A DNA stretch of 64,000 bases from an uncultured Candidatus Saccharibacteria bacterium. GTDB taxonomy: Bacteria; Patescibacteriota; Saccharimonadia; Saccharimonadales; Saccharimonadaceae. The position numbers and the translations under genes were made by a program. The notes below the pieces were generated by a model. That model had not been told where the DNA came from. It saw only the letters and a program-made list of their open reading frames with translations, and did not search any database. The stretch spans positions 7,436 to 71,435 of the forward strand of contig CAZTOK010000004.1 of NCBI GenBank assembly GCA_964615445.1, in the 5' to 3' direction. Shown in pieces: positions 7,228 through 63,083 of this stretch. Position 1 is the stretch's first letter; each line of letters begins with the position of its first letter.

Positions 7228-8042
7228 ACTAAGTACATTCCTTGGGCAAAGTGAACGGCTCGTTCAACTCTGTCTTTATTTGTACCTTGGTCGCCTGGAC
7301 GCATTTCGATTGAAATAATTTTATCGTAGGCAATTTCACGAAGTGCTTCGGCAGCCGCTTGGTGATCAACATCATCTCGTTTTTCCACTTGCTCAAGCAT
7401 CGGTGAGCTAATGTGAAAATGCTCAAGAATGTCTTTATTATCAAGAATGGAGTGCTTTATATCGTCGCCGGCAAGTGCCATACATGCGGTATCGAGATGA
7501 AGGCCAAAACCATTATTACCAACGGATCGAACCAACTCTGCTCCTTCGCTTGCCTTGGTGACAAAGTCGCAGGCATATTGGGGCGCGTTCGGCTCTATAC
7601 AAAGGACTACGTTTTCAGCCGCTGCCACTTCACCTAGCGAACGGAAAAAATCGGTGGCAATAACGGTAGCGTCAGCCACTGTCATATCGCCGCGTTGTCT
7701 GTTTTTTGGTGAGCCAAATACCATTTTCCTTACGCCCATCATACCGGCAAGCTTAATAAACTTCTTTAGATACTCTTCGCATTCTTTTCTGTTTGCCTCG
7801 TCTTGAAAAATCTTCAAATCAGGGCGCGCAAACAACATAGACTGAAACGCGACAACGCTAATGTCGTATTGTCTCCACCACTCAACCACTTTCAGCGCAT
7901 CCTCAAGAGTAGCAACTGTGGGATCTTCCCATAGTTTTGTTGGCGCAAGTTCAACGTAGTGCACCCCCATTGATTGTAGTATCGAGGCAACGTCAGCCTC
8001 TTCTTCATTTGTCCATGCAATACTCGAAACAGCTAAATTCAT
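7224..8042 (-). CDS. Sugar phosphate isomerase/epimerase (xylose-isomerase-like TIM barrel)
   Basis: 272 aa with a pattern typical of AP-endonuclease-2/xylose isomerase-like TIM barrels (VELAPTK..., FGSPKNR, CIEPN, HLDTACM, HISSP). Confidence 0.6.
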   Translation of the reverse strand: MNLAVSSIAWTNEEEADVASILQSMGVHYVELAPTKLWEDPTVATLEDALKVVEWWRQYDISVVAFQSMLFARPDLKIFQDEANRKECEEYLKKFIKLAGMMGVRKMVFGSPKNRQRGDMTVADATVIATDFFRSLGEVAAAENVVLCIEPNAPQYACDFVTKASEGAELVRSVGNNGFGLHLDTACMALAGDDIKHSILDNKDILEHFHISSPMLEQVEKRDDVDHQAAAEALREIAYDKIISIEMRPGDQGTNKDRVERAVHFAQGMYLV

Positions 8043-41943: not shown

Positions 41944-43176
41944 CTATTTCTTTCTATACCAGTTAAAATGACTATCAGTTGGGCTTTGCACGTCGGCCAT
42001 TGGTGCACGTTCATCTAGTGAGGCAGAAGCAATTTTCTCAGGATTTCCATTGGCAACGGTACGGCCATGTGCCGGGTCGTCGCCAAAGCCACTAATCGCT
42101 CCTACCCATACGAATGTGTGTCCTTCCTGGCCCGTGAAAGAACTTTTAATGGCCACATCGCCGGGTTGTAAGTTGGCTGGATTGATAGTGCCTCCCGTTC
42201 CTAAGTATTGCCAGTTTTCTTTTAGCCATTTTTCCTGTGCATCGGTATTGCCACCACCTTTACTCGGAAGATCACCATAATTGTAATTTGGTTCAAAGCC
42301 ACTATTAATCATAAGAAGTGATACGAAGCCACCACAGTCAATACCAGGATGTACAGAACCTCCAACGTACATGTGATTGCTTTGTGCTTGTTGAACGGCA
42401 TCTGTCCAAGCTTGCTGTGCAACAATAGTGAGTCCTCGGTACTGTGGCCAAGCGTAGGCCATAACTTTATCGTTAAGCGTTCCATTTGAACAGCCAGTGC
42501 CGGCTGATGATCCTGACGGTGCACCACTTGGTAGTGTCGCGACCGGTGCGGCGTTTTTGTATTGGTCATATAGTTTTTTTGCATTACCGCCACGGTTAGC
42601 GATAATTTGCTCAAGCGTATCATTTGAACCTTCAAAGTCACGGTGGAATACAAATGCGGCTTGAATTGGATCAGACTGTGCAAGAAGCGACTGTAGTGCT
42701 TTTGAGTGGGTCGTTTGTAGTTCTTGCCAGCTGAAACCAAGTTGCCCACCCAGATCGGTAATACCTACTTTTTGATCTTTTATAAAGTTCTCAAGCGGTA
42801 TTTGACGAGAGCTGAAGGTCCATTGGGCAATACCGAAGCCCACGCCATCTTTTGGTACATAGCTGTCGTCAACAATTCTACCGCCCTGCTCTTTTGCGGA
42901 GTTAACGCCAGATTCGGCAATAAAGTTACCAACAATACCTGCGGCTTGGGCAAGATTAAGTCCCTTCCCCATATAAAAGTTGAGGGCTTTCTCGATAGCA
43001 TCCTTTCCATTGAGCGTGGTCGAGCCACATCCACCGCTGGCATCTGGATTGTAGTAAATGATATCGTTTCCACTATAAAAATTGCGATCGAATGCACTAA
43101 CCTCTTGCACTGAAGTTGCGGCTATAAGGATGGCAACAAGAGAGAGTGGTAAGATTTTACGATACCAACGTAGCAT
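41944..43176 (-). CDS. Secreted bifunctional peptidoglycan hydrolase: phage-tail-lysozyme-like domain plus NlpC/P60- or CHAP-like cysteine peptidase
   Basis: Signal/TM (ILPLSLVAILIAATSV). The lysozyme-type block is AAGIVGNFIAESGVNS...GFGIAQWTFSSR...QLGFSWQEL. The peptidase part has GIDCGGFVSLLM (Cys) and GHTFVWVG (His). Confidence 0.75.
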   Translation of the reverse strand: MLRWYRKILPLSLVAILIAATSVQEVSAFDRNFYSGNDIIYYNPDASGGCGSTTLNGKDAIEKALNFYMGKGLNLAQAAGIVGNFIAESGVNSAKEQGGRIVDDSYVPKDGVGFGIAQWTFSSRQIPLENFIKDQKVGITDLGGQLGFSWQELQTTHSKALQSLLAQSDPIQAAFVFHRDFEGSNDTLEQIIANRGGNAKKLYDQYKNAAPVATLPSGAPSGSSAGTGCSNGTLNDKVMAYAWPQYRGLTIVAQQAWTDAVQQAQSNHMYVGGSVHPGIDCGGFVSLLMINSGFEPNYNYGDLPSKGGGNTDAQEKWLKENWQYLGTGGTINPANLQPGDVAIKSSFTGQEGHTFVWVGAISGFGDDPAHGRTVANGNPEKIASASLDERAPMADVQSPTDSHFNWYRKK

Positions 43177-45716
43177 TAATACGTCCTTCCTGTTGCTATA
43201 GCATGAAGTAAACTACCAATAGTGGTTAGACTGAAAGGGTTAGTCGTGCCGACTGCTTGCTGGGATGGGTCATCATAAAATGCTTGCGTCGCTGGGCTGT
43301 TTGTTCCAGGCGATTCATCGATGGTATCATTCGCTGGGTGGTAGCCTGTGTAATCGCTAAACATTTCTAACTGCGGGGTGTCGGGAAGGCAATTTTTACC
43401 CGTATACCAATCGGCACTGTCGGTCATATCCTCGGCATTAACTGTGGTACTTCCCCAAGGGTCGGTCCGATTAACGCAGTATTTCAAGTAACGTTCATAA
43501 TCACTACCCGGCTTAGGGTTGCCGGCGACATCAATCTGCTGATATGTTTCCATGTAGTCAAGCACTTTGTTAGGGTCAGCCGAAGGGCCACCGGGGACAG
43601 TACGCACAACACATCCCATATCTGGCTGAATACCGGCATCGTTATAGTCAGAGTCATTCGTACACTGACTAAATCGGGTATCGCTGTAGTTTGATACTGG
43701 CATGCTGTAGGCGGCATTCGCGTTTTTTACTATGCTATTTAGCGATGTTGGCAAGGCTGAGAATACTTTACTAAAGGTTGAGAGGAATGGAACACTAGTA
43801 GCTGCTGGAGTGGTAGCAAATTGGTGCATCATCGATCCTAGGAATGAATAGCGGTTGGTAAACGCAAATGGTGTGTTGCGAGCGTCGTATTGCTCTATGG
43901 CAACTTGCTGCTGCTCCACCGCAGCATTATCAGCCATGTTTTTTCGTATAGCATCTAGCTTACCTGGCTTCAAACCAAAGTGCATAGCGGCACTCCCCAT
44001 GATACTAGCTGTTCCAATAAAGAGCACATTGCCCGCATCAACCCCGGCAACGCTTGAGGTAATGTCGGCACCTGCCGCGGCTTGAACCGCAGCATTTACT
44101 AGGTATCCTGCCCAATCTTCCACCGGAAGTATCGCAAAAAGTCCACTGAGTGCAACCGAGAAAATAGGCGCTGCTAAGAAACTGATGACGGTAGTAAGCG
44201 TATTATTAGTTATTTTACATACGTCTCTCATTGTCTCTTTGCCAATATGTGTCTTTATCCAGGACATGGCAGTGCCGAGCGCGCCAAGGAAGGCACCTCC
44301 AATAAATAATCGCTTAGCGATGCTTGAAAGATTAATGCTGTCGCCGTACGCTACTACTTTGTATGCCTCTGAGTCGAGCGCATTCTTCCCCTTATTTGGA
44401 TTATCAATCATTTGGCCGGTTTCGGGGTCCTGTATTTTATCTGGGAAGCTTGAGGGTGCTAAAATATCTACACCTTTTTGCACCTCGGCCCCAGTTGCTT
44501 GGTTTGCCTTAATGGAGGCTGCGAGGGTTAATATAGCCATAGCAAACGACATATACCTTGCTGCTTTAAGAACCTTTGCCGAGGTAGATATAATATTTCC
44601 CATGTTATAGCCTAGACAAATAAGTTGCGGCCCAAGCACGACATTGGATCCGTGTAGACTTAAGTGAGTAACTGTTTTACCTGCTTTTATTGCGCTATTT
44701 ATCGCGCTTGCCGTATCGTTTCCTGTAGCATTCGCTGCGGCTTTGGTTTTATCGCCGCTGTCGTCCGCTACTGCATTAGTGGATAAATCTTCCGACTGGC
44801 CTTTCACGGCTTCATCGAATGACTTATTGGCTTCGTCGGCAGTGTCGCCACTGATTTTTTTTGCTTTTGTAAGATGAAGGCCGCTTAATACTCCATCGAA
44901 AAACTTTCCTAAAAAGAAACTATTTTTAAGGCTATAGGCAGCATTAAAATGACTGGCAGCCTCGACGTCTGTTTTTAATATTGAACCTAGCTCGCTCACG
45001 TTACTTGCGCGCGGCCCGCTCCCTGGCGTGCCGTCCTCGCCCGGGAATTTAATAGCGGTAACTCCCACGCGGCTACCTTGAGTAGTTTTTCCTTCAAATG
45101 TAAAACCTTTAGATTCGAATTTCTTTACTGTTTCTTCGTCTATAGTATTAAATTTACAGCGAATCGAAACGACAGAGTTACAAGCGCTAAACTTCTTTTG
45201 TAAGCCGCCCAACTTGGTTCCGAAAAGATTAATGGTTTTAATCTGTTGCGAAGAATTAGCATCATTTGTATCGTTAGTGAATTCTTCCATAATATCAATG
45301 GGAAGAAGTGCTGCGAGTCCGGTAAATCCAAATGTCCCTCCGCCAAGAAGCAGTAGTAAAATAAATCCAAGTGGACCTTTTTTCCTTATTCTTCCTTTTA
45401 CTGCTTGTTTTTTTGGTTGTGTGCTACTAACATTGTCCTTCCAGCGCCCGTTTTGCTCTTGATCTCTGGTATCATCTATGTTTTTGGTTGATACGGCATG
45501 TAAATCACCGCGCTCCGAAGTTGTTTCGCCACCCCCTTGAATAACTCCAAAACGGTGTTCTTGTTCGCTTAAATCCTCTGAGATATTGTCATCTGGCACT
45601 GATGATAGGTTGCCACGTTCGGGAGTATAGTCGCCATCCCCCTGAATAACATGCAAATCGGGCCGAATAGTAGGCTCTATTTCTTCATGACGGGATTGAC
45701 GTGCGGGTTCGGCCAT
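43176..45716 (-). CDS. 846-aa polytopic membrane protein of unknown family (T4SS-like operon)
   Basis: An acidic N-terminus with a duplicated VIQGxGxxTxERGxL motif, a TM at GFILLLLLGGGTFGFTGLAALL, and further hydrophobic helices in the middle third. TAATG junctions on both sides. Confidence 0.55.
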   Translation of the reverse strand: MAEPARQSRHEEIEPTIRPDLHVIQGDGDYTPERGNLSSVPDDNISEDLSEQEHRFGVIQGGGETTSERGDLHAVSTKNIDDTRDQEQNGRWKDNVSSTQPKKQAVKGRIRKKGPLGFILLLLLGGGTFGFTGLAALLPIDIMEEFTNDTNDANSSQQIKTINLFGTKLGGLQKKFSACNSVVSIRCKFNTIDEETVKKFESKGFTFEGKTTQGSRVGVTAIKFPGEDGTPGSGPRASNVSELGSILKTDVEAASHFNAAYSLKNSFFLGKFFDGVLSGLHLTKAKKISGDTADEANKSFDEAVKGQSEDLSTNAVADDSGDKTKAAANATGNDTASAINSAIKAGKTVTHLSLHGSNVVLGPQLICLGYNMGNIISTSAKVLKAARYMSFAMAILTLAASIKANQATGAEVQKGVDILAPSSFPDKIQDPETGQMIDNPNKGKNALDSEAYKVVAYGDSINLSSIAKRLFIGGAFLGALGTAMSWIKTHIGKETMRDVCKITNNTLTTVISFLAAPIFSVALSGLFAILPVEDWAGYLVNAAVQAAAGADITSSVAGVDAGNVLFIGTASIMGSAAMHFGLKPGKLDAIRKNMADNAAVEQQQVAIEQYDARNTPFAFTNRYSFLGSMMHQFATTPAATSVPFLSTFSKVFSALPTSLNSIVKNANAAYSMPVSNYSDTRFSQCTNDSDYNDAGIQPDMGCVVRTVPGGPSADPNKVLDYMETYQQIDVAGNPKPGSDYERYLKYCVNRTDPWGSTTVNAEDMTDSADWYTGKNCLPDTPQLEMFSDYTGYHPANDTIDESPGTNSPATQAFYDDPSQQAVGTTNPFSLTTIGSLLHAIATGRTY

Positions 45717-45728
45717 AAGTTGCCTTTA

Positions 45729-47645
45729 TTATACCCCTAATCCGTTAGGATTTGGAGGTGTGCTCTGCGGATAAACACTGCTAGCATCGTATCCCTGTGT
45801 GGGTTGTTGTACTTGTGGTTGAGGCGCTGCTTGGGTATCGCCTGGGTTTGTTGTAATAAGACGTGTTTCGGTGTCGCTCCCAACAATTTGAATATGTACA
45901 TGATTTTGTCCTGCAAAGAAAAGCCCCTGCCCTACCGGGAAGTTAGCGAGACGTTTTCGCTCCTCTTCTGTTAGTTTAAAGACATCGGAAAGTACATCAA
46001 CAGCGCTAGCCGACTGTTTAAGGAGAAGCTGCATAGATGAGTTGGCTACGATGGCGCGGCCCATTTTGCTGCCCATAAAGTCTTCAACATCCTGTGTAAT
46101 AGTAGTAAGACCCAGGTAATATTTACGAGCGCGTTTTGCAAGACTAAAGAGGAAGTTAGCAGAATCGTCATACTTCATTAATTGCCAAGCCTCATCCACA
46201 ATAAGCATGCGTTTTCGCTGGTCGGTACGTGTAATGTTCCAAATGTGACTAAGCACGATATACATGGCAACTGGCCGAAGCTCATCCTCAAGGTCGCGAA
46301 TATTAAAGACGACCATGTGGTTATTAATGTCAATATTTGACTGCTGACTAAAAATACCTGCAAATGTACCACTAGTATATTTGCGAAGGCGCTGGGCCAA
46401 ACTTGGGCCAGTGCCACCCATATGGAGGAGTGTGTCGTATAGGTCGGCGATAGTTGGAGGTGTTGAGTTGTGCGTTAATGGATCGCTGGTAATTCCCGCT
46501 CGCGCATAGGTGTCAATCAAGCCTTGGTCAAGGTCGGCCTCTTCCGCCGGCGTGAGCGCAGACATCATTTGACCTGCTGCTGTTGTTTGGCTTCCACCAA
46601 GCATTAAGCGTAACAATCCGTGAAGTGTCACCAAGTTGGCTCGTAAGGCGTCGTCTGCCTCGTCGCTATCGATAACACGAGGTAAGTCAAAAGGATTAAC
46701 ACGTGTGTCGGCGTTAAGGCTAAGACGAATATAACTTCCGCCTACGGCGTCGCACAATTTTTGATACTCATTCTCAGGGTCAATAATAAGTACATCCGAA
46801 CCTACCATCATACTTCGTAGTGCCTCAAGCTTCACAGTAAATGACTTACCAGCACCAGATTTTGCGAAGACGACCATATTGGCATTTTCCAGGCTAAAAC
46901 GGTCAAAAATAACCAAGCCGTTATTATGCATATTTATGCCATAAAGCACGCCTTTTTCCTGCGTAAGGTCAGCACTTGTAAATGGAAAGCTGGTACTGAT
47001 GGCACCCGTATTCATATTACGGCGAATTTGGAGTTGGTCGGTCATTTGTGGAAGTGTGCTGTTGAGCCCTTGTTCCTGTTGGCTACTGGCTACCTTGCTA
47101 AAGATAAGCTGTTGGCCAAAAAGTGTCTCGATTTTATGTTGGACAAAGCTCAATTCATCCATACTGTCAGCGTATAGGGTTACATAAAGGCCAAAGCGAA
47201 AGAAACGTTCTGAGCCAACTTGAAGTTGATCTCGCAGTTCCTCGGCATCTTGCAAGGATGCCTCAAGTCCAGGGTCGCGCGTACGACCCTTCTCGCTATT
47301 AATCGACATCGTTGCTTCGAGCTGTGTCACCTTTTTGCGAAGATTGTTTAACACCACCTGGCTCTCAACCGGATAAACAAATATACTAATATCGAGCACC
47401 TCATCGATATTTATAAGAGAACTTAGCCAGCCGGTATAAATTTGGCGTGGATAGCCATAAATATATAATGTTCTGCCATATTTAGTGCCAAGGCGAAAGT
47501 GGCTCGAGTGGATTTCGAGACTGCTTGGCGCGATCAAGTCGCGTAGCGTGGTCATGCCCGTTAAAAAGGCTTGTTCAACCTCGGCTTGTTCGCGAGCTCG
47601 CTGCTGTGCGGCAATATCAATGGGATCTAACTTTTTCTTGGCCAT
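45729..47645 (-). CDS. virB4: VirB4/TrsE/PrgJ-like T4SS ATPase
   Basis: Walker A VVFAKSGAGKSFT and Walker B RMLIVDEAWQLM. The N-domain pattern is YGRTLYIYGYPRQIYTGWLSSL...LDISIFVYP, with the later block YYLGLTTITQDVEDF. Confidence 0.9.
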   Translation of the reverse strand: MAKKKLDPIDIAAQQRAREQAEVEQAFLTGMTTLRDLIAPSSLEIHSSHFRLGTKYGRTLYIYGYPRQIYTGWLSSLINIDEVLDISIFVYPVESQVVLNNLRKKVTQLEATMSINSEKGRTRDPGLEASLQDAEELRDQLQVGSERFFRFGLYVTLYADSMDELSFVQHKIETLFGQQLIFSKVASSQQEQGLNSTLPQMTDQLQIRRNMNTGAISTSFPFTSADLTQEKGVLYGINMHNNGLVIFDRFSLENANMVVFAKSGAGKSFTVKLEALRSMMVGSDVLIIDPENEYQKLCDAVGGSYIRLSLNADTRVNPFDLPRVIDSDEADDALRANLVTLHGLLRLMLGGSQTTAAGQMMSALTPAEEADLDQGLIDTYARAGITSDPLTHNSTPPTIADLYDTLLHMGGTGPSLAQRLRKYTSGTFAGIFSQQSNIDINNHMVVFNIRDLEDELRPVAMYIVLSHIWNITRTDQRKRMLIVDEAWQLMKYDDSANFLFSLAKRARKYYLGLTTITQDVEDFMGSKMGRAIVANSSMQLLLKQSASAVDVLSDVFKLTEEERKRLANFPVGQGLFFAGQNHVHIQIVGSDTETRLITTNPGDTQAAPQPQVQQPTQGYDASSVYPQSTPPNPNGLGV

Positions 47646-48481
47646 TACATGCCTCCCTCTTGCAAATGTGGTCGTGGCGCTTCACCAGAACCTTTTTTCA
47701 CATAAGTTGAGGTAATTTGTTCAAAATTGCCAAGCGGTTCACGCACTGCCGTATCAGGGTTGTACATATTGTAAAAAAGTTCGCCTAGTTCTTTTGTATT
47801 CAACTGTACGCTCTTAACGCCAATCTGAAACAAGCCATTATTAACAGAGTCAACGCGGTTTTTAATCTCATCACGCGCTTTCTCGTATGATACTTTGTCA
47901 ATTTTTGTAGGGCCACTTTGTTGTTTTTGTAGCAATCTACTAAAAATACTTTTACTTTGTTCAATGACGTTTGTTAAATCGCCGGTTGGGAAATATGGAA
48001 CAATGACAAAGAAGCTCTTATCCATAATATTGGCTTCTTGCGACAGTACGTCGATAAAGTTAATGTAGTCATCCATAAGTACCCCAAGTAGCATGTTGTC
48101 TTGAGACTTGCGAATAGTAGAAAGTCTGTCAATGTATGGGCCAATGTCAACTCGTTGCGATCGGATAAATATTTGCACTGGAAAATAAAGGGCATTCAAG
48201 AAGTTTTGGTAGCTAAATTCAACCCCTTCTCGTTCGCGTGAGCTCATAAGGTCGAAATTGATAGATTTACAAGCAATGACCGCGCGAAAACTACCATCAT
48301 TCATAATGGCCATACTATCGCGGATTTCAGAGATAAGCAAACTATTCTGCGTTGTGTTCTGCGCAGTTTTTGTCTGAGGTGTACTACTCGCAGTCGGAGA
48401 CGATTGAGGTTGCTGCGCTGTAGTGCCACTTCCAATTGCACCAGTTGGCGCCGCTTGTGGTTGTTGATTATTTGGAGGCAC
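47645..48481 (-). CDS. T4SS-associated protein with a Q/P/T-rich N-terminus and a VirB4-N-domain-like C-terminal region
   Basis: LISEIRDSMAIMNDGSFRAVIACKSINFDLMSSREREGVEFSYQNFLNALYFPVQIFIRSQ resembles the start of Gram-positive VirB4 N-domains. Its stop overlaps the virB4 start (TAATG). Confidence 0.5.
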   Translation of the reverse strand: MPPNNQQPQAAPTGAIGSGTTAQQPQSSPTASSTPQTKTAQNTTQNSLLISEIRDSMAIMNDGSFRAVIACKSINFDLMSSREREGVEFSYQNFLNALYFPVQIFIRSQRVDIGPYIDRLSTIRKSQDNMLLGVLMDDYINFIDVLSQEANIMDKSFFVIVPYFPTGDLTNVIEQSKSIFSRLLQKQQSGPTKIDKVSYEKARDEIKNRVDSVNNGLFQIGVKSVQLNTKELGELFYNMYNPDTAVREPLGNFEQITSTYVKKGSGEAPRPHLQEGGM

Positions 48482-49514: not shown

Positions 49515-52385
49515 CTAAAGTGCAATTCTATCAATGATCGCTTTTCCGGCTGGATCAAGCTTGCGGTAAAGTTGCGCGTCTCCTTGGACCTTTCGTGCTT
49601 GAGCTTTAGTAATACCCCCAGCCCTTTCTGCTTCTGCAAGTGAATGAGTTTTTTGTTGAACAAGGTCTTCGTCAGACATAGTCCAGGTAGTTGCGTTTCC
49701 TGAAACCGCAGCCATACTTGTACCGGCAGCTGTAGTGGCATGTTTAGTGAGGTCGGCAGCCGTATTCTTAATAGCCGCATGGTTTGTAAGCATATTCCTC
49801 TTAAGATCTGTCATAGTATCACTAGCCATGTCTGCTGCACTTGTACGATTCATTGCATCGCGGTACTCTTTCGTACCAGCACTTCCACTTGTTAGTAACA
49901 TATTTTGCATTGCTCTGGCGGTAATGCTATCTCCGTCTCTAATTGCGTCAGATAATCGGCGTCCCATGTCTGCTGTATCACCCGGAGCAATGTTAGCCGT
50001 TAACTGAACGTCTCGTATGGCGTCGGCTATTGCTTTTTCTTGTTGTGCAGCTAAAGCTTTTTGCACTTCGGGGTCCGAGGCGGCCCTTCCCATGCCCTGA
50101 CTAATTAATCCTGGATTGTTAGCGATTGAGTTAACCAGCTGATTGTTAAGTGCGCTATTAACAGCATTGGCCTGCGCTTGATTTTGGGCGTTTTGCTGAA
50201 CATACTGGTTTGCTTTTCTGTCTGTCACACCAAACTGTGCCTGACTCGACTTCACTGCACTCGAAGCCGCTTGATCGCGCAACTCTCGGCGATAACTACG
50301 TTTAAATTGGCCTCCTCCAAACGTAGGTCTTCCCGCTAACGCGTTAGCCGAACGTGTATTTTGTCGATATTCACGGTATTTGCCTGCACGTTTTCGCATA
50401 GCGTCGACAGGTCCACGATTTGGATTATTAACATAGGCTCCTACCTTGCCAAGCACACCTTTAGTGGTATTGATAATAGTTGGGACAAGAACAAGGGGTA
50501 TAACAGAGGCGCCGGCACCAATCACCTGAACAGCTGTATTATCACTGGATGCCATAATAATTTTTGATGCTAATGCTGAAGCGCCAAAAATCAATCCCAC
50601 AGTAGGATACACAAGCAAGAGTGTCTCAAAAAGTTCACGCCATCGTTTAAAGAGGGACTCGGTATTTGGAAGAAGATATGCGACAAATGCTAGTGGCGAA
50701 ATAACGACCAAAAGGATAATAAGTGCTTGTCGGATCGTTAAAACAATAAAGACGGTCACAATAGTAACAAGAACAGTTATGAGCGTGGGTATAAGCGCGG
50801 AAAGTCCAACGTATAATGCTGCTATTCCCAATGCTCCCACAACAAGCAGTTTGCCGGCGAGACCAACGAATCCATCTCCGGTTGCACCAACGGCATTTAC
50901 ATTAAAGATCTTCACGTTGCCCATAGCGTTTTGAAGCACTTGATCAATGGAGGCGCCAAGAATGTTCGATAAGTCTACGCAGATTGAACATATCCAATAG
51001 GAAAGGTTAACCAGGATAGCCCCCAAGATAAGCCTTGGTAACATTTTTTTAATGCCATAATTGGTAACGCCAATGCTTGTCACCTGCGAAAATATAATAA
51101 TAAGGAAGGCGATAACGAAGGCGACGTTTGCAATATTACGAGCAACCGACCATACATTGTACATACTTCCGCCCGTATCGGTGGTAGTTAATGGCTGAAC
51201 CTTAAGTAGGTCTGATACGAGCCCGTATGCCGAGTCGGTAATATGAGCCATAAAAGTAACAATTGGGCATATAATCCACCCAAGGCCTGGGATGGAGCAA
51301 GTGGTGACATCTTTTGTATTATCAGTAGTTGACTGCGGTGGACTAGACGAACTCATGTCACCAGTGGCAATAGTTGCTCCGTATTTACAAGCGTTATACT
51401 CAGGATTGTTAGGATCATTACGGTTGCTAGCATCTTTATACGTTACAGAACAATAATTCGGGTCATCTTTATGCTTATATCCATTATCGCAAGCGGTTTG
51501 CTCGGCAACAGTAGCGTGAGCATACTTATCAAGACATGTTCCTGGTTCGCCGTAACCGGGTCGGATAGCGTCTGCGTACGCCTGAGCGTAAGAGTTCGCC
51601 TTGTTGGTAAGATCTAGACAAGTTGGATTTTCATATTCACTCGGACTACCGCCAGTTGCATCTGTTGAAATCTGGCGGTCATGGTCGAGTTGTCCATGGT
51701 AAATATATGGGGTTGGAGTATAGTTTTCTATCTGGTCGAGCGTATAACCAAGAGAGTTATTAGCCTCTAGCTTTTGCGAGCTTGAAGCATCACTTAGTTT
51801 AACAACTGACGTTGCCTGACAGCCGATGATAAATGTCTGACTATAGAGGTAGTAGCGCTCAGCATCATTTAGTAGCGGTTCACTGTGATTTTTTAGTAGC
51901 GCACCCTTCATATTTGCTTCCATGGCGCTGCCACCTATGTTACCGCCGTTAGCCGAACCAGCTTGAAGGTGTCCATCGCCTGGACACGCTCCGCCGTCGG
52001 TGGTTGTCCATTTAGCAGCACAAAGTAAATCAAATGGGTCGCTATAACCAAAGTTACTGGCAACGCCACTTACCCAGTTACTATCCTGACAACTTACCTG
52101 ACCGTCGCTTGAAGAGATAATATGGCCAACATGAACCTGATCACCTCCAAAAATATCCCATCGTTTAATATTGTCTGAGCTAAGCTGATAGCTCGGTGTA
52201 GTAGCACATGAAAGAAATGCATGATAATTAAGGTAGATCTTAACGTTGCTTGCTATCTGGTCTTGCGTTTCGGCATGAGCCTCCTGAGAGGCTGGCCCTA
52301 CAAGTCCAATCAAGGTCGACAAGACAACGACAGCAAGGAGGATGTAGCTTTTAGTGTGTTTCTTTAGTGTGTTAAACATTAACAT
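49515..52385 (-). CDS. Giant VirB6/TrbL-like polytopic protein: Cys-rich ectodomain, ~7 TM core and a ~320-aa hydrophilic tail (paralogue A)
   Basis: Signal/TM (YILLAVVVLSTLIGLV) and about 20 Cys in the first 370 aa. The TM core shares long identical runs with 53493-56156 (GLGWIICP, KKMLPRL, VISPLAFVAYLLPNTE). The VirB6 assignment rests on architecture and context. Confidence 0.6.
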   Translation of the reverse strand: MLMFNTLKKHTKSYILLAVVVLSTLIGLVGPASQEAHAETQDQIASNVKIYLNYHAFLSCATTPSYQLSSDNIKRWDIFGGDQVHVGHIISSSDGQVSCQDSNWVSGVASNFGYSDPFDLLCAAKWTTTDGGACPGDGHLQAGSANGGNIGGSAMEANMKGALLKNHSEPLLNDAERYYLYSQTFIIGCQATSVVKLSDASSSQKLEANNSLGYTLDQIENYTPTPYIYHGQLDHDRQISTDATGGSPSEYENPTCLDLTNKANSYAQAYADAIRPGYGEPGTCLDKYAHATVAEQTACDNGYKHKDDPNYCSVTYKDASNRNDPNNPEYNACKYGATIATGDMSSSSPPQSTTDNTKDVTTCSIPGLGWIICPIVTFMAHITDSAYGLVSDLLKVQPLTTTDTGGSMYNVWSVARNIANVAFVIAFLIIIFSQVTSIGVTNYGIKKMLPRLILGAILVNLSYWICSICVDLSNILGASIDQVLQNAMGNVKIFNVNAVGATGDGFVGLAGKLLVVGALGIAALYVGLSALIPTLITVLVTIVTVFIVLTIRQALIILLVVISPLAFVAYLLPNTESLFKRWRELFETLLLVYPTVGLIFGASALASKIIMASSDNTAVQVIGAGASVIPLVLVPTIINTTKGVLGKVGAYVNNPNRGPVDAMRKRAGKYREYRQNTRSANALAGRPTFGGGQFKRSYRRELRDQAASSAVKSSQAQFGVTDRKANQYVQQNAQNQAQANAVNSALNNQLVNSIANNPGLISQGMGRAASDPEVQKALAAQQEKAIADAIRDVQLTANIAPGDTADMGRRLSDAIRDGDSITARAMQNMLLTSGSAGTKEYRDAMNRTSAADMASDTMTDLKRNMLTNHAAIKNTAADLTKHATTAAGTSMAAVSGNATTWTMSDEDLVQQKTHSLAEAERAGGITKAQARKVQGDAQLYRKLDPAGKAIIDRIAL

Positions 52386-52438
52386 AAGCCTTTAGCTTAT
52401 ATAGTAAACTAAAGGCTTATGTTTTAGCAATATTGCAA

Positions 52439-53362
52439 TTAACTATCTATTTTTGTAGCTTGCCAGCCAGTAAGGTCGTATTTATTGGCATTGTTTGGCT
52501 TTTGGATACCATAAGTTACCTTTAATTGAGTAAGTGTTCCGGGTAGTTGCTCACCGTCTTTATTAACGAAAGCATGTGTGATAGTAGCGGTATCTACAAG
52601 CCCATCGCTAAGTTCGCCAAGATGTGCGATACCAGGTTGAAGTACTTCGTAAACGCTTTTAGTTTGGTGTGTTATATTATACTGACGATTCTGACGAGCT
52701 ACTGCCAAAATTTCAGGCTGCTTTCCTTCAGCGGAAATTGCCTGTGAAAATGCCGCTTCGAACGCATCCTCGGCAGCCTGATTACGCACAGGCTTATTAA
52801 AAGCTATCGCACCATTTGCAGGATCTTCATATGCTTGAATGCTATCGAGAACTAAATGAGTAAAGCCATCTTTGTAGTCAGGTTTGTCATGAGCGGTTAC
52901 CTCGAACATTTTTGCGCAACTATCAATACCGTTGCATTCGGCAGCGCCAATCTGCATCTCAACCGTTTGCGGGTTAATCTGTATGTTTGGATTCGTTTGC
53001 ATCGTCTCGGTGGTTGAAGTGGCGGTCGTAGTGGTAGGTGCCGCTTCAGCGGAGCTAGTGGCTACGGGACCAGAAGCGCCAGAACTTTCCGACTGACTCA
53101 GACCAATAGCGGTACCAAGTCCGCTTGCAAGTAGGATGCCACCGATCGCAATAGCTATCCTTGTTCTAAGTTTCTTCTTAGCTTCTCTCTCTTTAGTTGT
53201 GGTAGTTGGTGTTTCTAAAGGAAGTTGTGCGTACCCACCTTCTCTAGGGGGAACTTCTTGTTTGGGAATTTGAAAGGCGGTTTCGTTACTTTCGGAGCCG
53301 GGCACAATACCCTCCCCCGTACGCTGTACGTCTTGTCTTCCTGGGTAGGTGTCGTGACTCAT
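52439..53362 (-). CDS. Bitopic membrane protein (VirB8/TcpC-like topology) between the two VirB6-like genes
   Basis: Cytoplasmic N-terminus, a TM (IAIAIGGILLASGLGTAIGL), a T/S/A-rich linker and a ~190-aa ectodomain. No motif recognised. Confidence 0.5.
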   Translation of the reverse strand: MSHDTYPGRQDVQRTGEGIVPGSESNETAFQIPKQEVPPREGGYAQLPLETPTTTTKEREAKKKLRTRIAIAIGGILLASGLGTAIGLSQSESSGASGPVATSSAEAAPTTTTATSTTETMQTNPNIQINPQTVEMQIGAAECNGIDSCAKMFEVTAHDKPDYKDGFTHLVLDSIQAYEDPANGAIAFNKPVRNQAAEDAFEAAFSQAISAEGKQPEILAVARQNRQYNITHQTKSVYEVLQPGIAHLGELSDGLVDTATITHAFVNKDGEQLPGTLTQLKVTYGIQKPNNANKYDLTGWQATKIDS

Positions 53363-53492
53363 AATTCTGGCTCCTTGTGCTTACACGGGCACATAAAACT
53401 CTTATTGTCTTTTTAATTATATATTAAATATAGGAAAAAGCAAGGGGTCTCATATTTTTTTCTCACGCTACATATGGTGTGCGTAGAAATGA

Positions 53493-56156
53493 CTATGGTT
53501 TGAGAAATTTCGCTTGTTCGGGCGTTGCTTGCCGCGTTTGTACTCGACCGCTCCTGCGAAGAGCATACTCAATGGTTTGAATCTCTTCTATACGATCACC
53601 AATTGTAGCGCGAATCTGATCGTTAGTGAGGGCCTCGAACACGTTATTGTATGCCTTGTTAAGGTCGTTTGTACTACCAACGGCGGTAATACTATTAATC
53701 TGGTTAGCCACCTCTTTAACCCAGCCAGCTTTAAGATCTTTCATGTTGCTTGCAGCTGTATCACCAAGTGAACCGGCGCGTGCCATGTTCATGTTTGTTA
53801 GGCTCACGCCCGCAAGCTTTGGATCCGCCTGAAGATGAAACCCACCTTTTACCTTCATAGTTGAGGCGTTACGGGCAATAACACGTGAAAGCATATCTTG
53901 ATCTATATGTACATCGTCCATACGTGCTTTTTCAAGAGCCACTACCTGGCCTTCTCGAGCCTGCATCTCAAGGGCAGCTTCGATTTCACTGCTATTGTAG
54001 TTCGTTGCACCTTTTATAACGTCGCTCACGACAGTACCAGAGAAGTCTTTCGGTGTTTGATTATTCTGCAGGGCACGATAGGTAATGAGTTTGACACCAG
54101 CATCAAGAGCGGCATCACTTTCTTTACTAAGCTCACTCACGGCGTGGGCCTGAGCCTTCACGGCACCAGATGGATCAATACCACCTGCTCGGCGACTAAG
54201 ATTTTGGTTAGTGTTAAGCGCCGTAGCAATTTGTTGCGTCTGAATAGTGCGAGCCGCGGCACCACGTTGCGTTTCAACACTTGTTTCAAGAGCATTATTC
54301 ATAATATCTTGCGCCATAACGTTGCGGCTATGAGCAAAGTTAGCAAGCGCACTTACAGATAGATTGTCGGGAACGACCATATTGCGAGAATCGCCCGCTC
54401 GAAATTCATCCCAGTTGGCATCAACCTGCGCCTTAGCAAGATCAACATTGAGCTTGCTTGCACGGGCGTTAAGCTCAAGTCCCTGAATGCGTGCATTAGT
54501 ATGTTTTTGCGCTTCAAAGCGCGCCTCAGCGGCTGTTTCACCACCCTGCTTCAAAAGCGCTGCCTCGAGTGCACGTTCATGAATATTGTGCGCACGATGA
54601 TCGTTTGCCCATTTCGCATCAACCATAGCCTCGTTCGCCTTCTGCCACCCTTCGCGCGCACGACGCTTGGCATCAATTCGTGCCGAGGTACGGTTTAAGA
54701 AATCGCGGCGGCGCATGCCAGGGTCAGCCAGTACACGGGCTTTTCTTTGTGCTGCGCGCTCTTCGGCAAACTTTCGTGTACGATCCACCAAGCCTTTGCT
54801 TGGGTTGTTGGCAAGGCCAGCAATGCGACCAAGCAGCGAACCGCTTAATCGGAGCAATAAAGGAGTAATGGCAAGCGGTGCAACCTGTACCGCCATACCT
54901 AAAATGATCAAGTTGATAGAGTCGGCATTCTGGATAATTGCAATTCCCGCTAGCTGAGACCCACCAAACACAAAAGCAAATATTGGGAACATAATAAGCA
55001 TCGTCGAAAAGAGCTCATGCCATTTTTTAAAATACTTTTCGGTATTTGGTAGTAAGAATGCAACAAAGGCGAGCGGTGACACAATAATAAGCACTGTAAT
55101 AATAGCTTGACGCGCAGCCAGTACAACAAGGGCAATGAAGATGGCAAGAAGGAGTCCTGCAAGAATCGGTAAGAGCAGTGTAATAGACCCTCCAACCGTC
55201 GCCGCAAGGGCACTATGAAGTGCTAGGCCACCAGCCAACGCAGCCGTTCCGCCTGAGAGAATAAACCCTGCTATGCTTTTAAAACTAATAACCGACCACT
55301 GATTACCACCATTTCCAATGACAGTATCATGAATCGACATAAATAAATGTTCAATCGAATATCCTAAGACGTTGGAGGCATCCACTGCAATCGCACACAC
55401 CCAATACGACACGTTGACGAGTATGGCGGCAACAATCAGCCGAGGAAGCATCTTTTTAACGTTGTAGTTAGAAAGACCAACGCTTGTGAGTTGTGAGTAA
55501 ATAACAACAATAAATCCAATAACAAATACCACGTTTGCGAAATTACGCATGACTGACCAAATAGTAAATAGTGCATTATTCTGATCTGTTGATACCGGTC
55601 GAACAGTTAAGAAACCACTGACAATGCCAAAGATCCAGTCCATAGCGTTTGCGAGAAAATTTGTGGCTGGGCAAATTATCCAGCCTAGCCCAAACGTAAA
55701 CGAGCTGTCACAGGAGGTAGCCTGTTTAGCACCTGATTGTGGTGTGATAGTGATGGTTGTTTTATCAGTGGGGTTTGTGTATCCGTCAGGCGGTGTGTAA
55801 TCAAATACGACATATCCTGCAGAAGTTGCCTTGGAGGTGTCCACTCCGGCTGCAAAGTAAATGATGTGCATTTTCTCCGGGCCGCCATTTGCTGCCGGCT
55901 CTATAAAGGTGTACAGCTGCGTACCCTGGTTTAATCCTCGGCTATCATTCGTACCAGCGGTTCCGTTTTGTTGGTACTGATTGTTAAGATATGAAATATT
56001 ACTTCCATCCCATGCGGCTGTAGCTTCGTCAGCTCGAGTAGTAGGACTGCTGGCGAGTATAAATGCTAAACAAGCTGCAATCGTTGCAGCAGCAAAAAGA
56101 AAAAGATTCCGTACGGATAGTCTACCGAACGGGCGAGCTACTCGCAGATCCCACAT
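53493..56156 (-). CDS. Giant VirB6/TrbL-like polytopic protein (paralogue B)
   Basis: Same architecture as 49515-52385. Shared blocks are FGLGWIICPATNF, NYNVKKMLPRLIVAAILVNVSYWVCAIAVDASNVLG and RQAIITVLIIVSPLAFVAFLLPNTEKYFKKWHELF. Confidence 0.6.
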   Translation of the reverse strand: MWDLRVARPFGRLSVRNLFLFAAATIAACLAFILASSPTTRADEATAAWDGSNISYLNNQYQQNGTAGTNDSRGLNQGTQLYTFIEPAANGGPEKMHIIYFAAGVDTSKATSAGYVVFDYTPPDGYTNPTDKTTITITPQSGAKQATSCDSSFTFGLGWIICPATNFLANAMDWIFGIVSGFLTVRPVSTDQNNALFTIWSVMRNFANVVFVIGFIVVIYSQLTSVGLSNYNVKKMLPRLIVAAILVNVSYWVCAIAVDASNVLGYSIEHLFMSIHDTVIGNGGNQWSVISFKSIAGFILSGGTAALAGGLALHSALAATVGGSITLLLPILAGLLLAIFIALVVLAARQAIITVLIIVSPLAFVAFLLPNTEKYFKKWHELFSTMLIMFPIFAFVFGGSQLAGIAIIQNADSINLIILGMAVQVAPLAITPLLLRLSGSLLGRIAGLANNPSKGLVDRTRKFAEERAAQRKARVLADPGMRRRDFLNRTSARIDAKRRAREGWQKANEAMVDAKWANDHRAHNIHERALEAALLKQGGETAAEARFEAQKHTNARIQGLELNARASKLNVDLAKAQVDANWDEFRAGDSRNMVVPDNLSVSALANFAHSRNVMAQDIMNNALETSVETQRGAAARTIQTQQIATALNTNQNLSRRAGGIDPSGAVKAQAHAVSELSKESDAALDAGVKLITYRALQNNQTPKDFSGTVVSDVIKGATNYNSSEIEAALEMQAREGQVVALEKARMDDVHIDQDMLSRVIARNASTMKVKGGFHLQADPKLAGVSLTNMNMARAGSLGDTAASNMKDLKAGWVKEVANQINSITAVGSTNDLNKAYNNVFEALTNDQIRATIGDRIEEIQTIEYALRRSGRVQTRQATPEQAKFLKP

Positions 56157-62434: not shown

Positions 62435-62471
62435 CCGGTGGCGCTTCACGTTGGACGTGATGCGCCACCGG
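62435..62471 (-). terminator. Terminator hairpin after the 62484-62999 gene
   Basis: ccggtggcgc-t-tcacgt-tgg-acgtga-t-gcgccaccgg forms 16 bp with one T-T mismatch. On the minus strand it is followed by a T-rich tract (CGTTTCATTTTAAAA). Confidence 0.6.
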
Positions 62472-62483
62472 TAGGTGAGGTGG

Positions 62484-62999
62484 TCAGGAGGCCGCGTTCA
62501 CCGCGGATGTCCTGTTGTAGAGTCCCACGACGGACAGGCTGTAGGAGATGCGCGCGCGCCTCTCCCTGTTGAGACTGGCCCAGTCCGACCCCATCTCCTC
62601 CTGGATCGCCTTGATGGCGCCCGCGGGAGTGTTGCCGTTCTTGTCCAGCCAGAAGCCCTTTTCCAGGGCCACGCGCAGGGCAGTGGTGCTCAGCTCGTTG
62701 TCGAGTCGCGCCCGTACCAACTTGAGCGCCTGCACCGCCAGTCGCGCGCCGGTGTTGGCGTCGTGACGGGCGGCGGCGCTGTCGTTCTCGTCGATACTCG
62801 CCATGGCGGCGGTCCACACTCGCTTGAGGCGGTTGCCCCAGTTGAGCGCCTTGCTCCGCCGGAACGCTCGGATCGCGATCGTGGCGCCGACTCGCTGAGC
62901 GGTCGTGAGACCGGTCAGTTCCTGCCACGCTGCCGTGATCAGGACCTCGAGCGGGACGTTCGCGAAGATGAGCGACTTCGAGCCCTCGTAACGTGCCAT
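62484..62999 (-). CDS. Hypothetical 171-aa protein on a very high-GC insert
   Basis: Starts MARYEGSKSLIFANVPLEV..., preceded by GAGAGGAG. Codons end overwhelmingly in G/C, and line 62521-62580 is 40/60 G+C. The two overlapping ORFs (62446-62928 minus, 62475-63050 plus) are R/G/P-rich shadow frames. Confidence 0.6.
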   Translation of the reverse strand: MARYEGSKSLIFANVPLEVLITAAWQELTGLTTAQRVGATIAIRAFRRSKALNWGNRLKRVWTAAMASIDENDSAAARHDANTGARLAVQALKLVRARLDNELSTTALRVALEKGFWLDKNGNTPAGAIKAIQEEMGSDWASLNRERRARISYSLSVVGLYNRTSAVNAAS

Positions 63000-63054
63000 G
63001 ATGGCACTCCTCTCATCAGTGGAGTGGGAATTTCCCGACTCCGAGATTGATATT

Positions 63055-63083
63055 ACTATAACACACTTATCTAAAATATGCAA
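63055..63083 (-). promoter_or_regulatory. Sigma70-like promoter for 62484-62999 (TTGCAT-N17-TATAGT)
   Basis: The -35 is the reverse complement of 63078-63083 and the -10 is the reverse complement of 63055-63060, with a 17-nt spacer. It lies in AT-rich DNA directly abutting the GC-rich ORF. Confidence 0.35.

Follow-up and report, generated by a model that had tools for sequence, protein, structure and literature searches.

The locus described here raises a question in three parts: what are the two very large membrane proteins that are encoded close together in the type IV secretion system (T4SS) cluster of an uncultured Saccharibacterium, how did there come to be two of them, and do they serve the same purpose? 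The window, by which we mean the whole stretch of 64,000 nucleotides that was analysed (positions 7,436 to 71,435 of contig CAZTOK010000004.1, assembly GCA_964615445.1), carries three consecutive open reading frames (ORFs) on the minus strand. These encode a protein of 887 amino acids (aa), here called paralogue B (53493-56156), a protein of 307 aa (52439-53362), and a protein of 956 aa, paralogue A (49515-52385). The explanation that we favour is that A and B are enlarged ("extended") T4SS subunits of the VirB6/TrbL family, with a family membership that lies at the level of remote homology. Our confidence in this explanation as a whole, that is identity, domain layout, function and history taken together, is about 0.85.

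Paralogy and family membership

A and B are paralogues, as was proposed in the initial annotation of this region. BLASTP aligns the two proteins with 41% identity over 354 aa (E 3e-72), their common polytopic core comprises roughly 290 aa, and a comparison of the two core profiles with hhalign gives an E value of 3e-96. All six of the near-identical core blocks quoted in that annotation are present, and hydropathy analysis indicates about seven hydrophobic spans in each protein. The genome (1.59 Mb in 103 contigs) has exactly two copies of the large gene.

Among Pfam families, only TrbL (PF04610) is matched by more than half of the orthologous cores (12 of 19; best E 9e-5), a match that is mostly lost when full-length orthologues are used. 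Homologues from other classes of Patescibacteria match the Saccharimonadia core profile with E values of 1e-18 to 1e-28, and for six of ten such homologues TrbL (E 4e-6 to 4e-3) is the one family matched, in one case above the curated cut-off (27.2 versus 25.9 bits). Precomputed matches to PF19590.5 (TrbL_3) at E≤1e-5 exist for the close orthologues P0005, P0008 and P0009 and for B copies, and are weak or faint in another genome. A search of protein representatives produced 21,856 clusters at E≤1e-3; among the matches listed there were only close relatives and no bridge to named VirB6 proteins. The resemblance to TrbL/VirB6 sequence models would therefore seem to reside in transitive and profile evidence, and not in individual sequences.

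Further evidence comes from TrwI, the VirB6 protein of R388. Comparison by hhalign with an alignment of 120 TrwI/VirB6 proteins, for which the R388 sequence was taken from NC_028464, gave an E value of 6e-5, or 3e-5 with a broadened profile, at E values of 0.06-0.25 for reversed controls. The region paired in this way is RQALI..SPLAFVAYLLPNTE..F..W with AKIAL..GPLFILALIWQPT..FF..W. The AlphaFold2 (AF2) model of A has long hydrophobic helices (predicted local distance difference test score, pLDDT, 67.8; core 70-87). When it was compared by Foldseek with 350,542 PDB chains, R388 TrwI/VirB6 chains appeared at ranks 1, 2, 3, 5 and 10, with E values of 0.2-2.7, probabilities of 0.25-0.82 and template modelling (TM) scores of 0.24-0.39 across these five ranks.

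The genomic context points to the same family. Both genes lie in a T4SS cluster near the genes for PrgI(VirB3) and VirB4, their position between the pilin genes and prgI, the TraC-like gene and virB4 is found class-wide, and the order pilins, VirB6, PrgI, TraC-like protein, VirB4 is kept in 50 of the 52 sampled Saccharimonadia genomes. With about seven spans after an exported head, the predicted topology agrees with an N-out/C-in protein of at least five hydrophobic helices, and the combination of a core with large hydrophilic domains (956 and 887 aa in total) and of tandem paralogues is that of extended VirB6 proteins. Published work has arrived at a like assignment (PMC12102498; PMC10633639 Table S2), and most VirB6 proteins of Patescibacteria fit the MPF-T (mating pair formation type T) VirB6 profile and not PrgH (PMC12102498). 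A relationship to PrgH or TcpH, which the initial annotation had also considered, was not found, as families of this type are absent from the matches in all Pfam scans of the window proteins and their homologues.

A number of results weigh against this assignment and the model built on it. Neither window protein, whether full length or reduced to the core, has a Pfam or NCBIfam match even at E≤10, so that the earlier identification as enlarged VirB6 is upheld by weak TrbL matches in relatives, by the TrwI profile match, by TrwI as the best, non-significant fold match and by the context, and not by family matches of the window proteins themselves. Searching all six frames of the genome with PF04610 and PF19590.4 yielded nothing, and a profile of 102 A orthologues gave only chance matches with PDB sequences. 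The hhalign probability for TrwI is just 65-72% and the alignment covers mainly one motif (SPLAF...LPNTE..F..W), while the top TrwI matches in Foldseek are not significant when taken alone (E 0.2-0.4, TM score 0.25-0.39, model pLDDT 68). The topology is derived from hydropathy and charge only, and most VirB6 helices are no longer in the membrane once the R388 machine has been assembled, so that the number of spans may mislead. Co-assembly of A and B, finally, is purely a proposal.

Distribution and duplication history

The gene is present in 277 of 301 Saccharimonadia genomes. In the family to which the window belongs it occurs in all 101 genomes, nearly always in two copies, whereas a single copy is found in most of the order's other families. 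Outside the class, a match was found in 107 of about 190 sampled Patescibacteria genomes, usually as a single copy with a length of 600-1700 aa. The phylogeny that the initial annotation had recommended for dating the duplication was constructed by maximum likelihood from 73 cores. All copies from the window's family fall in one clade (support 100/97), made up of an A clade (97/90) and a B group, with many genera represented in both. Since one family clade is divided into A and B in this way, the duplication dates to the base of the window's family, although gene conversion at the family base could be an alternative source of the tree pattern.

Duplication of this gene has been recurrent within Saccharimonadia, through independent events. 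Separate tandem duplications are evident in families f16 and f27 and in genus g83 of family f2, where the two copies are sisters with 99-100% support, and an older duplication is common to families f29, f33, f34, f41 and f42. It could be argued that the duplication is ancient and common to all Saccharibacteria or Patescibacteria, and that lineages with a single copy lost one of the paralogues. In favour of this, two-copy loci occur in many families (f6, f16, f19, f27, f29, f33, f34, f36, f41, f42 and f47), and one older split, a clade of 24 rows in the tree, is common to several of them. An ancient origin is nevertheless unlikely, as no sequence from another family is nested between A and B within the family clade, the pairs in f16, f27 and g83 are each other's closest relatives, and a single copy is the rule outside the class.

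After duplication at the base of the family, the arrangement of the copies did not become fixed. A and B are swapped in one genome (G212, locus L036), where they lie 14 bp apart with no middle gene. The paralogues are unlinked in genus g4, with B about 58 kb from the cluster, and in genus g11, with A about 160 kb away (loci L034 and L035 of G030, L039 and L040 of G201). Two members of the window's family have five tandem copies between the pilin array and prgI, namely G041 (L094, at about 103.5-117.6 kb of C1) and G244 (L095, at about 130.4-143.9 kb of C2), and the array of G041 consists of one B copy and four lineage-specific A copies. Further high counts are six matches each in G237 and G249 and five in G273. 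In view of the recurrent duplication and of the five tandem copies in two relatives, the likeness to the tandem extended VirB6 proteins of Rickettsiales that was drawn initially is an apt one.

A side observation concerns an A-type orthologue (P0079, core 59% identical) that is labelled Streptomyces caniscabiei and is located on a contig of 957,675 bp. It probably comes from a nearly complete Saccharibacterium genome that went unrecognised within a Streptomyces assembly, which gives a hint at a possible host.

Domain layout and roles of the two copies

Hydropathy divides each protein into an N-terminal signal or anchor, a hydrophilic head, the membrane-spanning core and a long hydrophilic tail. 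Paralogue B is the conserved copy beside the pilin array; its orthologues, which form the B clade in the trees, hardly deviate from a length of about 880 aa and are 59-94% identical in the core. Like those of A, the features of B lie on the minus strand. The predicted signal peptide or membrane anchor (aa 1-42; 56031-56156) is hydrophobic at aa 13-39 and continues with TRA/DE. It precedes a short extracytoplasmic head that is rich in Thr, Ala and Gly and is without Cys (aa 43-148; 55713-56030), the polytopic TrbL/VirB6-like core with C149, a GLGWIICP motif and RQAI...SPLAFVAFLLPNTEKYFKKW (aa 149-450; 54807-55712), and, within the tail, a conserved helical C-terminal domain (aa 662-871; 53544-54173). 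B orthologues have a median of one Cys upstream of the GxGWxxCP motif, with the signal region counted, and the mean pairwise identity of their N-terminal region is 46%.

Paralogue A, beside prgI, is the fast-evolving copy, with orthologues that vary in length from 680 to 1070 aa. A Sec-type signal peptide is predicted at aa 1-38 (52272-52385), based on a hydrophobic stretch at aa 10-34 and an AxA site (...EAHA/ET) at which cleavage would occur. The head that follows (aa 39-362; 51300-52271) is Cys-rich, variable and extracytoplasmic, with 10 Cys, and is modelled by AF2 with a pLDDT of 70-90 over approximately aa 150-340. In the polytopic TrbL/VirB6-like core (aa 363-655; 50421-51299), C363, GxGW, C373 and P374 are invariant, the two cysteines flanking GxGW, C466 is near-invariant, and RQALI...SPLAFVAYLLPNTESLFKRW is present as well. 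The conserved C-terminal domain (aa 768-955; 49521-50084) is all-helical in the AF2 model, with pLDDT values above 80 at aa 800-850 and 920-956. The heads of A orthologues range from 65 to 418 aa, have a mean pairwise identity of 22% and contain a median of 9 Cys. The number of Cys is even in 82 of 87 orthologues, as expected if the domain is exported and disulfide-bonded. Paralogue A as a whole has 14 Cys, of which 12 occur up to the GxGWxxCP motif, so that the approximately 20 initially counted for the ectodomain was too high; B has 4.

Both ends of the proteins had been regarded as diverged, and for the heads (324 aa in A, 106 aa in B) this is confirmed, as no kinship could be detected (hhalign probability 44%). 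The tails present a different picture, since the last approximately 200 residues of A and B are homologous (hhalign probability 99.8%, E 1e-27, 200 columns). This implies that the whole gene, including the C-terminal domain, was duplicated. The enrichment of the tails in Ala, Gln, Asn and Arg (37-40% together) is as described earlier, and the expected length of 300-400 aa fits the tail of A (316 aa), but that of B is longer (450 aa). Both tails, which are more than low-complexity sequence, are helical in the AF2 predictions, contain no Cys and evolve rapidly, with mean pairwise identities of 29-33%; a Pfam match or a match to PDB sequences was not found. Hidden Markov models of the tails that were derived from close orthologues recognise no more than 9 of the 73 class-wide proteins and are too narrow to establish the ancestry of the C-terminal domain in the class.

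The loops KKMLPR and KRWR are basic, as is the beginning of the tail, where a strongly basic stretch directly succeeds the last span. This distribution of basic residues over alternate loops and just behind the last span suggests, together with hydropathy, that the tails are probably cytoplasmic rather than secreted. For some extended VirB6 proteins of Rickettsiales and Anaplasmataceae, surface exposure or release of the tails has been proposed, and also here the long C-terminal tails might be exposed or released and act on the host cell. Such a role would suit their length and fast evolution, and a locus in which neither a coupling protein nor a known effector is visible. It is quite improbable, however, given the seven spans that follow an exported, Cys-paired head, the basic stretch that would hold the tail in the cytoplasm, and the Cys-free composition of a tail with a folded helical domain that is conserved in A and B. 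The suggestion in the initial annotation that the tails may be secreted or cleaved is thus at variance with the predicted topology.

It is very unlikely that one copy is just a duplicate, redundant or in decay, that lacks its own role, even though many families of Saccharimonadia manage with a single copy. Both frames are intact and the core motifs are invariant. Moreover, both types are kept in nearly all of the 101 genomes of the family, also when they are 58-160 kb apart, and both counterparts in Candidatus Southlakia epibionticum were scored essential; retention of unlinked copies and essentiality together argue against redundancy. Least credible of all is that the proteins are polytopic transporters or polymerases, such as an ABC-2-type permease or an oligosaccharide repeat-unit polymerase, that sit in the cluster by chance: the B orthologue P0144 is named "oligosaccharide repeat unit polymerase" in one NCBI record and the Southlakia genes carry KEGG K01992 and the label "ABC transporter permease", but these database labels were rejected because no family match stands behind them, TrbL being the only recurrent family, while linkage to PrgI, VirB4 and pilins is strict throughout the class and TrwI is the best fold match in the PDB.

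As extended VirB6 subunits, A and B would each combine an exported, disulfide-bonded N-terminal head with a VirB6 core of about seven helices and a basic helical C-terminal domain that is most likely cytoplasmic. The cores probably come together as an oligomer in the middle of the membrane translocon, above PrgI(VirB3) and the VirB4 ATPase, as suggested by Southlakia genetics and by the R388 structure, in which a VirB6 pentamer is located at the base of the stalk (PMC12857230). The oligomer would then be a platform for the assembly of VirB2-like pilins, for which the middle bitopic gene may supply a VirB8-like scaffold. A single duplication at the base of the window's family would have been followed by divergence of roles, in which B became a conserved structural subunit of constant size, and A, with its rapidly diverging Cys-rich head and its amplification in relatives, probably a variant that faces the envelope or the host.

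A more far-reaching proposal is that the paralogues form a mixed central assembly, in which B builds the stalk, the head of A replaces the missing VirB5 tip or adhesin and contacts the host envelope, and the shared cytoplasmic domain replaces the coupling protein by docking VirB4 or substrates. This is rather unlikely as it stands; if true, host range would be reflected in how many copies of A there are and in their sequence.

Neighbouring genes and known systems

The gene between the two copies (52439-53362) encodes a bitopic protein with one transmembrane segment, in agreement with the initial annotation. Hydropathy and the AF2 model suggest a cytoplasmic N-terminus, a transmembrane helix at aa 68-89, a Ser/Thr-rich linker and a C-terminal alpha+beta domain of about 180 aa. 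The protein is probably VirB8-like. Its predicted bitopic N-in/C-out arrangement is that of VirB8, TraM(pIP501) and PrgL, and VirB8-like proteins are among the best fold matches of its C-terminal domain. These matches are NTF2-like (E 0.02-0.16) and include the IcmL-like structure 5cnl (E 0.023, probability 0.92), Rickettsia VirB8-like 4o3v, CagV 6iqt and TrwG 4nhf. On the side of the differences, confidence in the model is low (pLDDT 50.6), the sequence is very divergent (16-19% identity within the family) and gives no sequence-level match, and the gene is missing from several two-copy loci, where the gap is just 14-200 bp. The Southlakia gene at the same position, SEML1_0012, was classed as NTF2-like and is non-essential (PMC10633639).

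The cluster is a Gram-positive-type T4SS, located on the chromosome near the replication origin of a Saccharibacterium; homologues carry the names Saccharibacteria or Saccharimonadales. On the 3' side of A follow genes for a PrgI-family protein, a 278-aa protein, a VirB4-type ATPase, an 846-aa membrane protein, a lysozyme/NlpC hydrolase and a PEGA protein. Six T4SS pilin genes are present on the opposite strand upstream of B, and dnaA, dnaN and recF adjoin the cluster. The possibility that it is a mobile or conjugative element was set aside because the cluster is chromosomal, adjacent to the origin and conserved across the class. When 72,556 plasmids were searched by tblastn with the B core, none matched, and a scan of the region for promoters and terminators gave a number of sites that is not above that in shuffled sequence.

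Some of the neighbours deserve a remark. The 278-aa protein (47645-48481, minus strand), encoded between PrgI and VirB4, has no local Pfam match, and its orthologues carry precomputed PF26593 (TraC-like). The 846-aa membrane protein (43176-45716, minus strand), encoded after VirB4, has no Pfam match either. The equivalent position is occupied by a 1054-aa Peptidase_M23 protein in locus L088 and by the DD-peptidase-like SEML1_0007 in Southlakia, so that the hydrolase module seems to have been lost or to have diverged in the lineage of the window. At 62446-63083, three long ORFs overlap on both strands, with a G+C fraction of 0.51 versus about 0.44 and Arg/Gly/Pro-rich translations, and this segment looks like a compositionally foreign insert. 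The source assembly, with 3.7% contamination, is large for a Saccharibacterium (relatives have 0.6-1.2 Mb), and part of it may thus be foreign or strain-mixed. The closest relative is from a root metagenome, and the species is probably of soil or rhizosphere origin, with a larger genome than that of Southlakia.

Among the machines of Saccharibacteria, the T4SS is one of few with a demonstrated essential role in epibiotic life. The gene pair is an ordinary member of this system, since the T4SS, its VirB6 genes, the pair in strain TM7x and the triplet in Southlakia have already been published. The convergent solution that the initial annotation suggested is therefore not a newly seen one, and enlarged VirB6 proteins of 700-900 aa are known from monoderm MPF-FA systems (PMC12857230). 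The value of the present analysis is accordingly incremental. What it adds is that the duplication is placed in time at the family level and has recurred, that the two C-terminal domains are homologous, and that A and B evolve asymmetrically. These provide targets for genetics in cultivable strains: a conserved paralogue next to one that diversifies and multiplies, a common, probably cytoplasmic domain, and repeated duplication.

The closest known system is that of Ca. Southlakia epibionticum ML1, in which the triplet SEML1_0011/0012/0013 has the same organization: a large polytopic protein by prgI, a bitopic NTF2-like protein of about 280-300 aa and a second large protein by the pilins, all beside dnaA, dnaN and recF. 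SEML1_0011 and SEML1_0013 are essential for epibiotic growth according to transposon sequencing (Wang et al. 2023, PMC10633639 Table S1/S2); "T4SS protein" and "TrbL/VirB6" were given as their fold matches, and both have helical, ARM-like C-terminal parts (PMC10633639). The window represents a different species, with an orthology that follows from synteny and size only, and neither the duplication nor the shared C-terminal domain nor the Cys-rich head was analysed in the published work. In Nanosynbacter lyticus TM7x, two virB6 genes were predicted, TM7x_00055 and TM7x_00060 (bioRxiv 10.1101/2022.03.25.485537).

With canonical VirB6/TrbL proteins (PF04610; R388 TrwI in 7o3v, 8rt9 and 8rtd; VirB6 of A. 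tumefaciens), the window proteins have in common a polytopic arrangement, predicted to be N-out/C-in, a position by VirB3 and VirB4, and a motif round a conserved Pro and Trp (SPLAF..LPNTE..F..W versus GPLFI..WQPT..FF..W), and TrwI is the best, though non-significant, structural match. They differ in being about three times larger, due to an extra exported head and a C-terminal extension of about 300-450 aa, and in belonging to a monoderm organism with no VirB5, VirB7, VirB9 or VirB10; the similarity is seen only with profiles.

Extended or tandem VirB6 proteins occur elsewhere as RvhB6a-e of Rickettsiales, VirB6-1 to VirB6-4 of Anaplasmataceae and the amplified trwI of Bartonella, and the several TrwI proteins per Bartonella genome in our TrwI collection are consistent with the latter. 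These systems have in common with the window a VirB6 core with large hydrophilic extensions, tandem paralogues, and host-dependent bacteria with reduced genomes. The five-copy arrays of G041 and G244 parallel rvhB6a-e of Rickettsiales. Within Saccharimonadia, however, the duplications took place independently, and the host is another bacterium instead of a eukaryotic cell.

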